DNA of 25,861 bases, from the UHGV virus genome UHGV-0115523. One strand, given 5' to 3'. Made by a program: the position numbers and the translations under genes. Origin of the DNA: a virus. The notes below the pieces were generated by a model, which saw only the letters and a list, made by a program, of their open reading frames with translations, searched no databases and had not been told where the DNA came from. Shown piece after piece: positions 2,351-24,749 of this stretch (within the stretch, counting starts at the first letter, position 1; every line of letters begins with the position of its first letter).

Positions 2351-3251
2351 CCGTTCCTCCGTTGGTTACGCTCCACTGCGTACATGATGCCGCCTGTGTT
2401 TTGTTCAGGACCACATCCGCCAGCGGAGAAGCCAGTTCCACACGTTGGACACCCTCAACATGCAGAGCAGCAAAGATGGCGCTACGGCGAATATCCCGAC
2501 CAAGCCTCGTCTGGCTGGCAATGTACTTCTGCAGACTGGCTTTTGCCGCTGCCATTACCGGCTCTGCTTCCGGTCCCGGATAGAGAAAAATGGTGGCTTC
2601 CACGCGATACGGGATGATTTCTGCGCTGCGAACCGTAAGACGGTCAGCCACCGGGCGGACGTTCTCACTGTTCAGAGCTTTTTCCACCACGTCCAGCAGG
2701 TCTTTTTCTGCAGTTCCATCGCCTTCGCGGCTAAGGACAGTCAGCACCACCTCTGCAGGTGCCGGGCTGGTTGCACTGGCATCCGCCACCCGACCGTCGG
2801 CGCTTCGGGCATGAAATTCATAAGCTGCAGTTGGCCCCGCAACAGAAAGCCCTTCAAAGGCTGCAGGCACACGCAGGCGCAACGCTTCATCGCTTTCCAT
2901 CACAGCTGCAACGGGCGGCACAGCATCATTATCAGCAGGCGTCACCGTCAGGCGTGTCACGTTGTAGTTGGCAGCGAGCTGGTCAAGATCGCCGCCCATA
3001 GCGTAAGCCACCATCACCGCCTGCGCGGCTTCGTTAATGCGCTGGCGCAGAAGCAACTCACGGTAAGCGTTCTCCTGCAACAATTTAGTGGCGGGTTCAG
3101 ATTCCAGTTCCAGCGTGCGGATCACTGCTTCCTGCTCATCTTTCGGATGAAGCGCCACAAATTCTGCCTTGCGTTCGGCAAGCAGCGTCTCAAAGTCCGG
3201 CACATCCACAATCTGCGGTGCAGGCAACTGCGAAAGGTCAATCACTGCCAT
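2343..3251 (-). CDS. J: Baseplate assembly protein (P2 gpJ-like); start trimmed to Met14 of the ORF-track frame
   Basis: ATG at 3249-3251 is preceded by AGGAGC; product MAVIDLSQLPAPQIVDVPDFETLLAERKAEF is gpJ-like at about 302 aa; synteny W-J-I. Confidence 0.85.
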   Translation of the reverse strand: MAVIDLSQLPAPQIVDVPDFETLLAERKAEFVALHPKDEQEAVIRTLELESEPATKLLQENAYRELLLRQRINEAAQAVMVAYAMGGDLDQLAANYNVTRLTVTPADNDAVPPVAAVMESDEALRLRVPAAFEGLSVAGPTAAYEFHARSADGRVADASATSPAPAEVVLTVLSREGDGTAEKDLLDVVEKALNSENVRPVADRLTVRSAEIIPYRVEATIFLYPGPEAEPVMAAAKASLQKYIASQTRLGRDIRRSAIFAALHVEGVQRVELASPLADVVLNKTQAASCTQWSVTNGGTDE

Positions 3252-15732: not shown

Positions 15733-15966
15733 TTAATGCAGCCAGCTGTCGTCTTCCCACACCTTCTGCATAATCTTCATCACTTGTTTTCTTTCTTCGT
15801 CCAGTTGCAGTCCGGTCAGTTCCACACCGTTAGAGCTACCTTTGCGGATGCGAATTACCATTTTGGGATACAGGGGGCGCAGATTGCGGTAAAGCTCGGA
15901 TTCAAGGGCGTCCAGGGTAGACTGGCTAATCTTCTGCTCTTTATCGATCATTATTTCAATGCGCAT
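15733..15966 (-). CDS. DinI-family protein (about 77 aa)
   Basis: MRIEIMIDKEQKISQSTLDALESELYRNLRPLYPKMVIRIRKGSSNGVELTGLQLDEERKQVMKIMQKVWEDDSWLH matches the DinI pattern (MRIE..., acidic W-containing C-terminus); GAGGTG RBS; the ORF-track frame extends upstream to 16038 but that start is less likely. Confidence 0.65.
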   Translation of the reverse strand: MRIEIMIDKEQKISQSTLDALESELYRNLRPLYPKMVIRIRKGSSNGVELTGLQLDEERKQVMKIMQKVWEDDSWLH

Positions 15967-15976
15967 AAAGGTCACC

Positions 15977-16165
15977 TCAGCTGATGACATCCATTGAGCG
16001 GTTGTATTCGTGGGTTCTGATTTTTGCCATGAGTTCATCAGTCAATTCAGAAACCCACTGCAGAGCCAGCCCCTTCTCTTCATCACTACACTCACTAGCC
16101 GCTACAAGCTTAAGAAAAAAATCAATGCGCTGGAGCTTCAAAGACTCCAAAAAATAGTCCTGCAT
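15977..16165 (-). CDS. Small 62-aa protein, first gene of a LexA-box-controlled cassette
   Basis: Strong AGGAGG RBS 7 nt upstream of the ATG; LexA box 43-58 bp upstream; stop 10 nt before the DinI-like start. Confidence 0.5.
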   Translation of the reverse strand: MQDYFLESLKLQRIDFFLKLVAASECSDEEKGLALQWVSELTDELMAKIRTHEYNRSMDVIS

Positions 16166-16207
16166 CTTTCCTCCTATGACACCAAAGTAATACTGTATAT
16201 ATAACCA

Positions 16208-16223
16208 CTGTCTATATTTACAG
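16208..16223 (-). promoter_or_regulatory. LexA (SOS) box CTGT-N8-ACAG
   Basis: actgtctatatttacagta is near-consensus to TACTGTATATATATACAGTA; an adjacent half-site tactgtatat lies at 16191-16200. Confidence 0.65.
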
Positions 16224-16317
16224 TATATAATAATCTTACTGATGTAAAACGTTTTTTTACGTTCATCAGCCTGAAATGCCTGGTATTATTAAGAGCACGA
16301 ATTGTTAACCCGCGTAA

Positions 16318-20998: not shown

Positions 20999-21195
20999 TT
21001 GGACTTTCTCCGTTTCCTCGTGGTCAATTCAGACAGCAATTCATCTTGTGAATGACATGGATGCCAGCGTTTTCCATCCTCACCCGTGATCCAGCCGTGA
21101 CCGTAGTGCATTGCCGGGCTTTGTTTTACCAGCAGCGATGCAAATGATGGTTCTTTCGTCAGCATAAGCACCTCACAGCAAACCAAATGAAGCAC
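20869..21195 (-). CDS. Hypothetical ORF overlapping the 74-aa gene in another frame (uncertain)
   Basis: 108-aa ORF whose 3' 130 nt overlap the neighbouring gene; could be a real overlapping gene, a frameshifted gene, or spurious. Confidence 0.25.
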   Translation of the reverse strand: MLHLVCCEVLMLTKEPSFASLLVKQSPAMHYGHGWITGEDGKRWHPCHSQDELLSELTTRKRRKSKCMRQKVKWFISFVTEGRVIQYLKMICSVAIRHCRAMAVTFSR

Positions 21196-21682
21196 CGAGG
21201 CCAGTCACGGTATCAACTGCACTCGCCATCGCAGGGTTAGCCTGTAAACGGGCCTGCAATGAAACAGCGGCCAACGCCATCAGTCGTGTTACAGAGTTAA
21301 TGCTGCTGATAGCTTCGCGACGGCCTGCACTGGTTTTTACATCGCCAGATACCGCACCTGCAGCAACACGCCCGATCTCTGCGGTTGCACTCATGACGTA
21401 ATGTGGCAGTTTCTCTTTTGCCACCTCATTAATCGGTACACATGGCAGACAATGAATCTGTGCCAGAAAACCGTCTACCAGCGTTGAATCTTCAGTCAGA
21501 TCGGTAAGTAGCCAGATATCTGGTGCGGTTAATAAATGAGGTTGAGCTGGGTTCAGCTTGTTCCGCAGAATCTGCACATTCATGCCTGCACGTTCTGCCA
21601 GTTGCACCAGGTTGTGGCGCAGTGCGAATACTCGACAGGCTTCATCAAAATGTGGATGTTTGGAAACTTGGTAATCAAACAT
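21173..21682 (-). CDS. cII: CII-like transcriptional activator of lysogeny establishment (186 CII family)
   Basis: 169 aa, the same length as 186 CII; N-terminus [45 protein letters not shown] and C-terminus ...[21 protein letters not shown] match my recollection of 186 CII; position after apl. Confidence 0.7.
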
Positions 21683-21714: not shown

Positions 21715-21936
21715 CTAGTTAATACTCAAATTGCATTCAGAGAGCGCATCAACGGTCATTGCTGCGATATTGATCATTACCTTTTCTCGCTTTTTATCTT
21801 TACGGAGACGATGGCGAATAAGGCGTCCATCAGCCAGCATGTCATTGATAGTATCGATAGATAACCCAGTCAGTTCACTGTATTTCTCAATAGAAACAGA
21901 TGGGACAGCTAAGGTGATTGAAATATGTGGAGCCAT
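21715..21936 (-). CDS. apl: Apl/Cox-like excisionase-repressor (small HTH protein); start trimmed to MAPHISITL
   Basis: 73 aa; GAGGAA RBS; divergent from cI across a 125-bp switch region; position as 186 apl. Confidence 0.6.
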   Translation of the reverse strand: MAPHISITLAVPSVSIEKYSELTGLSIDTINDMLADGRLIRHRLRKDKKREKVMINIAAMTVDALSECNLSIN

Positions 21937-22061
21937 GATGCAAGATTCCTCGTTTAACAAGATGTGTGGTAACTGGTGATTAATCCTGTTCAGTTCACTT
22001 TCGCACACACTAATTCTTCATTTGAGAAGTGTCAACCAAAAATTACTCAAAGGCGTAATAA
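21937..22061. promoter_or_regulatory. Lysis/lysogeny switch region between apl and cI (promoters and operators not resolved)
   Basis: 125-bp intergenic region between divergent regulators with short inverted motifs (gtgtgg / cacacac). Confidence 0.4.
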
Positions 22062-22943
22062 ATGAATTTCAAAAACGGAGGACAAGCAGTCATAACGCGC
22101 ATGCTTGAAGCGTATGGATTCAAGACAAGGCAAGCTCTGTGCGAACAGTTCAACGTATCTGCAAGCACTATGGGCACGCGCTGGATGCGTGACGTATTTC
22201 CTGCTGACTGGGTAATTCAGTGTGCAATTGAAACGGGTGCATCTATCGAGTGGCTCTCATTCGGAAAAGGCGTACCATTCCCTCAGAGTACTGAGGCTCC
22301 GGTCATGTCAAAGGCAACTGCATCAAAGGTTCAGCACGTTTCTCAAGCCACCACCCTGAAGTCCCCAATTGGGAACGATCTGAATTTTGACTCAGGCGGA
22401 CGTGATGCAATAGACAGGCTAATGAAAGCGTATGGCTTTAAAACAAGACAAGAACTTGCCGACCATCTGAATGTATCTAAAAGCACTATGGCAAATAGAT
22501 ATTTGCGAGACACATTCCCGGCTGATTGGATCATAAAATGTTCGTTGGAAACAGGAAATTCTCTTTTATGGCTAGCCACTGGACAAGGCAGCGAGCACAA
22601 TGCTCTCACAACATCGGTAAAAGAACTGCCTAAATTTCATCTCAATGCAGGCAAAATGGTTGAGAGTGGCTCATATATTTTCGATTCGTCATTTTTACCC
22701 GCTAATCTTTCAGCACCAATTGTCGTTCAGGATGGTTTAGTGGCATACATCTGTGATCAGAAATTTTCTGATGTATTAGATGGATACTGGTTAATTAATA
22801 TTGATGGAACCTATTCCGTCAGACAAATTACTAGGCTACCTAAAGGTATGATAAATATCAGAAGTAAAGAAACTTACTTTGAATGTGCATTTTCTGATAT
22901 CGAGGTAGTTGCATGCATAAGAAGCACAATCATTTCGAATTAA
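22062..22943 (+). CDS. cI: CI immunity repressor (186 CI family) with a tandemly duplicated N-terminal DNA-binding domain
   Basis: Two copies of the 186-CI-type NTD signature (AYGFKTRQ...NVS.STM..R..RD.FPADW.I.C..ETG.S..WL..G.G) at residues ~9-70 and ~115-176; 293 aa versus about 192 aa for 186 CI. Confidence 0.7.
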   Translation: MNFKNGGQAVITRMLEAYGFKTRQALCEQFNVSASTMGTRWMRDVFPADWVIQCAIETGASIEWLSFGKGVPFPQSTEAPVMSKATASKVQHVSQATTLKSPIGNDLNFDSGGRDAIDRLMKAYGFKTRQELADHLNVSKSTMANRYLRDTFPADWIIKCSLETGNSLLWLATGQGSEHNALTTSVKELPKFHLNAGKMVESGSYIFDSSFLPANLSAPIVVQDGLVAYICDQKFSDVLDGYWLINIDGTYSVRQITRLPKGMINIRSKETYFECAFSDIEVVACIRSTIISN

Positions 22944-23023: not shown

Positions 23024-24226
23024 ATGAGTAAAACCAACTTTAAAACTGAACGCGGCATTATAACATTTTTTGATTTAGAAATGTTTGGCCTTTATAAAAT
23101 ACGACAAGGCAAATCGCCGGAATTAGTCGAAAAGAACTTATCCCATGTTCTGTGTAACTTACATAGCTGGATCTGTTCAAGAACAGTTGAACAATCTGTT
23201 CCATGGGGAAAGGATAATAATAGAAGAACAAAAGCATACTGTAAAAATATTTCATATGACAGTACGACAGGAGATTATCTATTTGTTATCTGGAAAACGC
23301 TTGGTGATAACTCTGGAAATATTCAAGGTATAGATGCTGAAAGTAAGATTGACGGCACTTCAGATAATGTTGTATCCGCCTCTGATACTCAAGGTGGCGG
23401 TAAATATATCTGGGGCGTACCTTGCTACTATTGGGTAATTCCAGAATATAACAAAATTGCATCCATACGATTCCCAAGTTCTAATACGGATACAGATCTT
23501 TTCTGTCATTATATTAAAGCATACGTTGACTTTAGGATGGAGCATCCTAATAAAAAAGTCATAGATATGACTCGTCCTCGTAATGACTCACCTGAAGACG
23601 TTCATTACAAACGTGTTCTTTTTTCTCAAGGTGATGATGAAAGTTTAGTTTTTAAAGTACAGACTAAACAAACAAGGATGATCACGAGTGGAGCAAACAT
23701 AGAAGAACTGTGTAAAAAAATCACTCACATTGTTTACCATGACGTAATAGAAACAAACATACCTGATACACGGGAAAAATGGCAGAAGTTATTTGATGCA
23801 GTTGGAGATGTTTTCTCAAGAAGCTCTCCTATTTTATCAAAAAAACATCGCGTTGAATTATTAGTCGAAGGAACGCCTACGCCTGAAGAGTTCACTAAAC
23901 TCATCGATGAATATATAGAAAACCACAATCCTATTTCAGAAGATACAGAAAACAACAATGAGAATGTAGGGAATGATCACGCACGCATCGGATTCAAAAT
24001 AAATGGGAAAAATGGTTCAACTACTTGGTTAGATGAATATGTTTATCGCCATGAAATTCACGTTGACCTTTCTAACAGAAACAAACATTACTCTTCTTCA
24101 TATTTAATGAGTGTGGTAAAAGCTCATAGAAATGATTTGGTGAATTGTTTTAAAAATGAAGATATAATAGAACAACCAGAAGCTGATAATGATACAGCAG
24201 TGCAGATTCATAAAATAGGTGCATAG
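23024..24226 (+). CDS. Hypothetical 400-aa protein (cargo; candidate sensor of a two-gene module)
   Basis: Long AT-rich ORF immediately downstream of cI on the same strand; no motif recognised. Confidence 0.55.
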   Translation: MSKTNFKTERGIITFFDLEMFGLYKIRQGKSPELVEKNLSHVLCNLHSWICSRTVEQSVPWGKDNNRRTKAYCKNISYDSTTGDYLFVIWKTLGDNSGNIQGIDAESKIDGTSDNVVSASDTQGGGKYIWGVPCYYWVIPEYNKIASIRFPSSNTDTDLFCHYIKAYVDFRMEHPNKKVIDMTRPRNDSPEDVHYKRVLFSQGDDESLVFKVQTKQTRMITSGANIEELCKKITHIVYHDVIETNIPDTREKWQKLFDAVGDVFSRSSPILSKKHRVELLVEGTPTPEEFTKLIDEYIENHNPISEDTENNNENVGNDHARIGFKINGKNGSTTWLDEYVYRHEIHVDLSNRNKHYSSSYLMSVVKAHRNDLVNCFKNEDIIEQPEADNDTAVQIHKIGA

Positions 24227-24227
24227 T

Positions 24228-24749
24228 ATGATTATAAAACCTAAAATTTTGCACATATGTTTTCTCCTAACAATTATAGCTATTGCTTATTTGTTCGGAG
24301 ACAAATATACGTATGCAGATATAAAAGATATTTTATCTACCTTGCAAAACATTTCTGCAATGATCTTCACTATTGCAGGTATTTGGCTTGCATATATTTA
24401 CCCTGCAGCTGTAAGTTCAATTGTAAAGCCATCAACAATAACTAGTATAAACTATCATAAGGAAACAGAAAAAGATATTGAGCGAATTACGCTGATAGTG
24501 AAAACCATTATAATTTCAGCTATTGTAATATTTTCTATTGTTATAATAAATTTAACGAAACCTATATTTTCAAATCTGGATTTCATTTCCTTGCATAAGC
24601 ACGTGTTCTGCAAGTTTGGATTTTTTATCACAGCGTTATTAGTATATCTACAAATAATAGCGTTATTTAGTATCATTGCTAGTAATATATTATTTCTTAA
24701 TGATATACATGATAAAAGAAATAAACGAGAGCTTGATAAATTAAGGTAA
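24228..24749 (+). CDS. Small integral membrane protein with four predicted TM helices (cargo; candidate membrane effector)
   Basis: Four hydrophobic stretches; ATG at 24228 with AGGTG RBS, one nt after the upstream stop; GTG at 24219 is the ORF-track alternative. Confidence 0.55.
   Translation: MIIKPKILHICFLLTIIAIAYLFGDKYTYADIKDILSTLQNISAMIFTIAGIWLAYIYPAAVSSIVKPSTITSINYHKETEKDIERITLIVKTIIISAIVIFSIVIINLTKPIFSNLDFISLHKHVFCKFGFFITALLVYLQIIALFSIIASNILFLNDIHDKRNKRELDKLR

Follow-up and report, generated by a model that had tools for sequence, protein, structure and literature searches.

The window analyzed here is the whole 25,861-nucleotide stretch of UHGV virus genome UHGV-0115523, a P2/186-like prophage whose repressor gene, cI, encodes two successive DNA-binding heads (N1 and N2) ahead of a single C-terminal domain (CTD). 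Judged by sequence comparison, this CI is a chimera, in which a foreign head and its tether precede what is otherwise a nearly entire single-head CI from a different lineage. Among the alternatives to the lambda switch, that of 186 CI is one of the best understood, and to our knowledge all mechanistic work on 186 CI concerns the single-head protein. The gene and its parts, including the two helix-turn-helix (HTH) domains, are laid out as follows, from the open reading frame (ORF) list, Pfam, hidden Markov model (HMM) envelopes and an AlphaFold2 (AF2) model:

22062-22943, plus strand: cI, ATG start, 293 amino acids (aa), stop codon included (ORF list; Pfam PF07022 twice and PF16452; PGAP 'phage repressor protein CI').
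22062-22277, plus strand: N1, HTH domain 1, residues ~1-72, recognition helix SASTMGTRWMRD (HMM envelope, AF2).
22278-22379, plus strand: inter-domain linker, residues 73-106, predicted to be disordered (AF2; alignment to the 5' ends of single-head cI genes).
22380-22595, plus strand: N2, HTH domain 2, residues ~107-178, recognition helix SKSTMANRYLRDTFP (Pfam, HMM envelope, AF2).
22596-22940, plus strand: C-terminal oligomerization domain of the 186 CI type (PF16452; Foldseek match to 2fkd_A).

Pfam recognized PF07022 (Phage_CI_repr) in two stretches of the protein (combined E 4.6e-59) and PF16452 (Phage_CI_C) over residues 189-285 (E 1.2e-25). The N-terminal 104 residues aligned without gaps to residues ~107-176, with 39/70 identities (56%, E 1e-32), and the local alignment score of the two heads was 231, compared with 26 ± 5 (maximum 45) for 500 shuffles. 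At the DNA level, N1 and N2 were 60% identical overall and 39% identical at third codon positions, with GC contents of 48.6% and 42.6%, respectively. The initial annotation, which had been made from the sequence, had described two diverged tandem heads of the 186 type followed by a CTD, the second head being the more AT-rich; both statements agree with these values.

The AF2 model, computed for a single chain with 44 tandem homologues as the input alignment, had a mean predicted local distance difference test score (pLDDT) of 82.6. Each head was modeled as five helices with pLDDT ~90, so that the modeling check proposed in the initial annotation returned both domains as HTH units, and the C-terminal part was modeled as a beta domain. 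Linker residues 75-105 had a pLDDT below 50. With Foldseek, the CTD model superimposed on the CTD of 186 CI (2fkd_A) over 110 columns, with a template modeling (TM) score of 0.94 and a root mean square deviation of 1.3 Å. The C-domains of the self-cleaving repressors LexA and lambda CI were weaker fold matches (E 5e-06 or worse), and, unlike these repressors, the window CI had no Pfam match to Peptidase_S24 at E <= 1. The window CI thus belongs to the same N-terminal (PF07022) and C-terminal (PF16452) domain families as 186 CI (PDB 2FJR, 2FKD), in which the wheel and the flanking site FL are known (bioRxiv 10.1101/2021.10.29.466366). By homology, it is assumed to form a heptamer-of-dimers wheel like that of 186 CI, the present comparison being one of the CTD fold. 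It differs from 186 CI in that the latter (2fjr, 189 aa) has one head and aligns only to window residues 114-284 (28% identity in the Foldseek alignment), leaving the first ~105 residues as an extra head and a linker of ~34 residues. A chain of this repressor type, as characterized in 186, has a single head in ~190-205 aa. The estimate that 186 CI has one head and is about 100 residues shorter was therefore correct.

The reading frame is intact and widely shared. In 12 complete E. coli genomes (>=99% identity), the same ORF bears the annotation 'phage repressor protein CI', and it was also found in two IMG/VR contigs. Diverged cI matches occurred in 19 further E. coli genomes, six of which covered 95% of the ORF at 88-89% identity; the remaining 13 of the 31 genome matches covered the first 59% of the ORF alone, at ~87% identity. 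In the diverged variants P0002 (297 aa) and P0003 (292 aa) the frame was open though their CTDs differ by up to 75%. Together with the 39% third-position identity, the 12 near-identical genomes argue against a recent duplication or an assembly artefact, as the initial annotation had maintained.

Selection was estimated by the Nei-Gojobori method as the ratio of nonsynonymous to synonymous substitution rates (dN/dS) from the window, P0002 and P0003. The ratio was 0.00-0.02 for N1, 0.02-0.15 for N2, 0.4-0.6 for the linker and 0.3-0.4 for the CTD, and strong purifying selection therefore acts on both N1 and N2. The invariant or near-invariant columns of N2 among the 44 tandem proteins include recognition-helix residues S139, K140, S141, T142, A144, R146, Y147, R149 and D150. 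Since this helix is among the best-conserved parts of the protein in the 44 tandem CIs, N2 probably remains DNA-binding. On the AF2 model and these ratios, both heads are folded and under selection, with a flexible tether between them. A different fate was seen for some tandem cI genes that end early, at 229 aa in L018 (Dryocola sp. BD586) and 237 aa in L161 (IMG/VR), and likewise in protein P0105. Both heads are retained in these and most of the CTD is lost; they may represent decaying prophages or head-only variants.

Tandem heads turned out to be more common than the initial annotation, which had implied that the architecture is unusual, would have it. In a whole-protein search, they were present in 46 of the 120 best homologue clusters at 90% identity, down to 40% identity, with proteins of 290-330 aa from E. 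coli, Salmonella, Klebsiella, Citrobacter, Enterobacter, Kosakonia and Edwardsiella. Among the fetched loci, 43/173 carried a tandem cI, a figure that fell to 2/80 when one genome per species was taken. Repressors of this length are thus a large minority among the best clusters and are rare when each species is counted once, so that the proviso of the initial annotation, that they might be the norm in the family, applies by half. When N2 alone was used as query, ~30 of the best 150 representatives at 50% identity showed two matched stretches, and PF07022 twice with PF16452 was confirmed for representatives from Pantoea, Citrobacter, Edwardsiella, Enterobacter and Shewanella. The same search also returned unrelated HTH or tetratricopeptide-repeat (TPR) proteins, recognizable by 4-7 matched stretches, which were set aside.

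Two named phages have the same architecture. CI of Salmonella phage PSP3 (Eganvirus PsP3; NP_958086), annotated as immunity repressor in a reference genome, has 286 aa and contains PF07022 twice and PF16452. It differs from the window CI in being 30% identical overall, and its heads fall into a different tandem group with proteins from Pantoea, Citrobacter and Edwardsiella. CI of Klebsiella phage 4LV2017 (313 aa), with the P0022 clade of other tandem CIs from Enterobacteriaceae, likewise has tandem heads and a CTD, an N2 of the ANRY[LM]RDTFP type and a switch without the palindrome described below. It is 42-48% identical to the window CI and differs in an N1 of another lineage (SQSTMANRYARD), an 18-residue N-terminal extension and candidate operators of the form TCACAWWWCGG. 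In the literature searched, which covered few subscription journals, no account of head duplication among 186-type CIs was found; the sole comment found on the length of PSP3 CI attributes it to a 'longer C-terminal domain' (PMC3448106).

The two heads of the window CI have different closest relatives. N1 is 86% identical, from residue 1 (MDFKNGGQAVI...), to the head of P0116 and P0100, which are single-head CIs of 206 aa, N2 is 78% identical to the single heads of P0093, P0080 and P0113, and N2 together with the CTD is 73% identical to the 198-aa single-head CI P0005. The end of the linker, KSPIGNDLNFDSGG (KSPIGND), matches the N-terminal arm MSTSKYPIGDDLAFESGG (MSTSKYPIGD) of single-head CIs, so that the similarity of the P0005/P0007/P0093 type (197-198 aa, 73-78% over N2 and the CTD) includes the arm. 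Because the linker end matches a single-head arm and the heads belong to different lineages, a foreign head would have been placed before a near-complete CI. A fusion of two immunity specificities, as proposed earlier, was therefore the right idea for this copy. The single-head FPADW-type CIs on both sides of this comparison differ from the window CI in having one head, and in their switches, which hold four copies of TGGAAAGT (L004) or the palindrome GTYCCCAAnTGGGRAC (L007, L008, L013-15, L021, L101 and others).

Other tandem CIs obtained their first head elsewhere. The closest relative of N1 was the single head of P0082 for P0075 (78%) and that of P0160 for P0004 (72%). For the Shewanella protein P0220 it was the protein's own N2 (identity 0.66), as it was for P0235 and P0240 (0.66-0.70), and these three sequences point to in-gene duplication. 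Given such diverse sources of N1 among the tandem clades, the tandem architecture arose repeatedly. In the window gene, Met82 (within 22296-22330) has GAGG 8 nucleotides (nt) upstream, and the sequence around it, ATGTCAAAG, is similar to that at which single-head cI genes begin, ATGTCAACATCAAAG; it may be what is left of the ancestral start codon. An internal start at this position, giving an N2-CTD isoform, is not proposed, as the Met is missing from the P0003 variant and from other clades.

The primary repressor operators of P2-like phages lie over the lytic promoter (PMC7498355), and the corresponding region was therefore compared between single-head and tandem loci. The elements of the window that enter this comparison are:

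21937-22061: apl-cI switch region, 125 base pairs (bp), near-identical in all prophages with the same N1.
22006-22034, minus strand: inferred lytic promoter pR, with -35 TTGACA (complement of 22029-22034), a 17-nt spacer and -10 TAGTGT (complement of 22006-22011).
21990-22053: candidate N1 operator elements, inferred from blocks invariant among 8 variant switches.
21992-22001: candidate N1 block AGTTCACTTT, invariant in the 8 variant switches.
22010-22030: candidate N1 block TAATTCTTCATTTGAGAAGT, an imperfect palindrome in the pR spacer, invariant in the same 8.
22045-22053: candidate N1 block ACTCAAAGG, invariant in the same 8.
22361-22376: intragenic palindrome GTCCCCAATTGGGAAC, perfect, 16 bp, inside cI at the junction of linker and N2.

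The promoter pR was read by eye and by homology, its layout being repeated in related switches; the consensus sigma-70 scanner did not list it, and its placement is accordingly an inferred one.

In loci encoding single-head CIs of the P0005/P0007/P0093 type, the palindrome GTYCCCAAnTGGGRAC (16 bp) lies just 3' of the pR -10 and 45 bp upstream of the cI ATG, and a weaker second copy is sometimes present in codons 5-10 of cI. Unique switches were sorted by the recognition-helix signature ANRY[LM]RDTFP. The palindrome was present in 17/18 switches of single-head loci with the signature, the 18th having a copy with 3 mismatches in the same place, and in 0/86 switches of single-head loci lacking it. 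In tandem loci with the signature in N2, it was present in 0/21 switches, and for the contrast with the signature-bearing single-head switches the Fisher test gave p = 3.5e-10. The window switch contains neither the N2-type palindrome nor a half-site with <=1 mismatch. Since the tandem prophage lacks this palindrome in its own switch, N2 has most likely been kept for a role other than at pR. Single-head cI genes of the P0005 type occur in ~177/5426 complete E. coli genomes, and prospective targets of N2 are thus common in the same host.

Neither the window nor the 40-kb prophage locus holds any match to GTYCCCAAnTGGGRAC other than the intragenic palindrome GTCCCCAATTGGGAAC (one mismatch), which lies ~330 bp from pR. 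Save for the central base, it is the same as the inferred pR operator of L013 (GTCCCCAAATGGGAAC), and its position is homologous to that of the second site at the 5' end of single-head cI genes. From its sequence and position, it appears to be a well-preserved relic of an ancestral operator, which is possibly still bound.

At its operator positions, the switch seems to vary together with N1. In the N1-like single-head locus L004, the position homologous to the candidate N1 elements holds a perfect palindrome, ACTTTCCATTTGGAAAGT, and two more TGGAAAGT half-sites (four half-sites in total), and the invariant blocks of the window switch coincide with these half-site positions. The P0116-type half-site TGGAAAGTK was unenriched in the window (9 matches compared with 11.7 expected, none of them in the switch), so that the N1 sites of the window would be related to this half-site and not identical to it. 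The largest tandem clade (N1 helix SQSTMANRYARD) has a switch homologous to that of N2-like single-head loci, identical in its left half and in the -10/-35 frame, with both operator positions replaced, by AACTTCACAAAACGG and AAACACATTTCGCC. The N1-like single-head loci L088 and L073 have CACAAAAYCG at the former position. Moreover, the same N1 and switch were found joined to at least two N2 lineages, with the recognition helices STLANRYLRD and STLATRYMRD. Two further switches were read. In that of L022 (Brenneria populi, single-head), pR is surrounded, ~110 bp upstream of cI, by three direct repeats of GCTTTTGGAATC and no palindromes, and operator geometry in this CI family seems, from these sequences, to vary between inverted and direct repeats. 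In the PSP3 switch, no clear operator pattern was seen.

Based on these comparisons, we hypothesize that N1 reads the prophage's own pR operators, while N2 keeps an ancestral specificity for another target, a proposal whose chances we place at about even. N1 would bind operators over its own pR and thereby set the immunity type of the prophage. N2 would keep the recognition helix of the widespread single-head 186-like phages with the inferred operator GTYCCCAAnTGGGRAC and, in the reading that we prefer, bind the operators of such phages on superinfection, giving one-way cross-immunity. It may also bind the intragenic palindrome at 22361-22376 as a flanking site like FL of 186, tuning looping on the CI wheel. 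Release of CI by a LexA-controlled TumA-type antirepressor is assumed by homology. More tentatively, and with a clearly smaller likelihood, a tandem CI could be a route to a new immunity type that passes through no non-immune intermediate and creates one-way immunity: N1 and new operators would take over the phage's own switch, and N2 would still repress superinfectors of the ancestral type, whose single-head CIs could not repress the tandem phage.

The mycobacteriophage cluster A repressor offers an analogy only. It, too, has two DNA-binding domains in one chain, and it differs in being of an unrelated fold and family and monomeric, its two unlike domains reading one asymmetric site (PMC9283540). 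Immunity among cluster A phages can be graded or asymmetric (PMC6550527).

Several observations weigh against the proposed division of labor. The Fisher p value for the contrast between signature-bearing single-head and tandem switches overstates independence because the loci are related. In the sibling variants L002 and L003, which are the closest ones, the intragenic palindrome has decayed to four mismatches, and it is therefore not a general reason for the retention of N2. The candidate N1 sites of the window (TGAGAAGT, GAAAGTG) are related to TGGAAAGT of L004 and not the same, and they form an imperfect palindrome only. By global similarity, the switch was closer to that of the N1 relative in only 14/25 tandem loci, and the co-inheritance of N1 and switch could reflect linkage, since N1 adjoins the switch. 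Every operator named here is a candidate deduced from palindromes, position and co-occurrence, and the conservation of the N2 helix could in part reflect a structural constraint instead of DNA contact.

The rival explanations differ in what they make of N2. It is unlikely that both heads bind the prophage's own switch as composite operators, through unlike half-site pairs or alternating sites on the wheel, as the initial annotation had considered. Strong purifying selection on both heads would suit such an arrangement, a wheel of tandem subunits would present twice as many heads, and 186 CI itself is reported to use strong pR sites together with weaker adjacent and flanking sites (bioRxiv 10.1101/2021.10.29.466366); in addition, the L011 switch has two overlapping kinds of palindrome, GAGAATTTATTCTC and CTCACAAAATGTGAG. 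However, neither the N2-type palindrome nor a half-site of it at <=1 mismatch lay in the window switch or in any of the 21 tandem switches examined. The joining of one N1 and switch to two N2 lineages that differ in the recognition helix would also be unexpected if N2 read the switch specifically.

Alternatively, N2 may no longer be sequence-specific, N1 doing all the specific binding and N2 serving as a structural spacer or native neighbor for the CTD, in non-specific wrapping, or as a dock for a TumA-type antirepressor. This would agree with N2 and the CTD making up a complete single-head CI, with the long tether to N1 that is disordered in the AF2 model, with the absence of the cognate palindrome from the prophages' own switches, and with the LexA box and tumA/tumB-like pair in the window, as Tum binds the repressor (PMC3121763). 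Nevertheless, we find it improbable: the recognition helix is itself the most conserved part of N2 in the 44 tandem proteins, where a structural role would allow its surface to drift, and it keeps the exact signature that predicts the palindrome in single-head phages. As for an artefact, in which a sequencing or assembly fault had fused two neighboring genes or the gene were a pseudogene in decay, nothing was found in its favor; some tandem cI genes elsewhere are truncated (L018, L161). Its chance is negligible, given a frame that is open across E. coli genomes, diverged variants and 46 homologue clusters, dN/dS far below 1 in both heads, and confident AF2 models of all three domains.

The surroundings of the gene resemble those in 186. 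In E. coli 1105 the prophage sits between ybjL and rcdA. As in 186, cI faces apl-cII, here across a 125-bp spacer (~90-135 bp being usual for 186-type CI genes), lies upstream of int (int from 24830, plus strand) and is accompanied by what resembles a LexA-controlled Tum-type module. The first genes of the lytic operon are:

21715-21936, minus strand: apl/cox-type gene, lytic operon gene 1 (ORF list; PGAP, 73-aa hypothetical protein).
21173-21682, minus strand: cII (PF06892, Phage_CP76, Pfam E 6.1e-41).

The window Apl is 71-84% identical to the Apl-position proteins of related loci. A joint origin of apl, switch and N1 from a P0116-like phage was rejected, as Apl (71% versus 79%) and CII (46% versus 79-87%) are closer to other lineages; by sequence, the spacer and N1 alone look P0116-like. 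In the single-head locus L008 (Citrobacter telavivensis), the apl-position gene (2684-2905, minus strand) has an in-frame stop (…ERYS*LTGL…) and a called product of 49 aa; this gene is probably defunct, a pseudogene, although the switch otherwise looks intact. Motif discovery in the window alone returned weak and noisy repeats, among them a 13-nt inverted pair, ATAACCCAGTCAG and CTGACTGGGTAAT, at 21861-21873 (in apl) and 22204-22216 (in N1), ~165 bp to each side of the pR -35, and an exact 10-nt direct repeat, TCAGTTCACT, at 21870-21879 and 21990-21999, 120 bp apart. These repeats are near chance (~0.15 such inverted pairs expected by our own estimate) and were not used as evidence.

A LexA-box-like site, CACTGTCTATATTTACAGTA, at 16206-16225 is the sole CTGT-N8-ACAG in the window. 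Downstream of this site come a 62-aa ORF (15977-16165, minus strand; no Pfam match) and then a DinI-family ORF (15733-15966, minus strand), and the arrangement of the three is like that of the split tumA/tumB of PSP3. By analogy, this suggests SOS induction through a LexA-controlled TumA-type antirepressor; Tum works by binding the repressor (PMC3121763). Between cI and int, two AT-rich genes (23024-24226 and 24219-24749, plus strand; 35% and 28% GC) match both PADLOC PDC-M18 candidate defence components (A, E 2e-36; B, E 5e-24) and have no Pfam match. The cargo of this slot differs in related prophages, with an AAA ATPase and DUF4276 in L003, SNIPE/T5orf172 and DUF2971 in L008, and in L002, L010 and L011 still other, unknown genes; the slot looks like a defence-gene hotspot.

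Tandem CIs are thus a widespread variant of a well-known repressor family, for which no functional description was found in the literature searched. A recurrent two-head subgroup raises the questions of how a wheel with doubled heads engages DNA, and why a head should be kept whose cognate operator the prophage's own switch lacks. Because the label that such proteins receive from annotation pipelines is simply 'repressor protein CI', immunity groups drawn from whole-protein similarity would be wrong for tandem CIs. If N2 indeed acts in trans, such prophages would exclude common competitors while escaping their repressors, and tandem CIs would provide a simple mechanism by which superinfection immunity becomes asymmetric and new immunity types arise.

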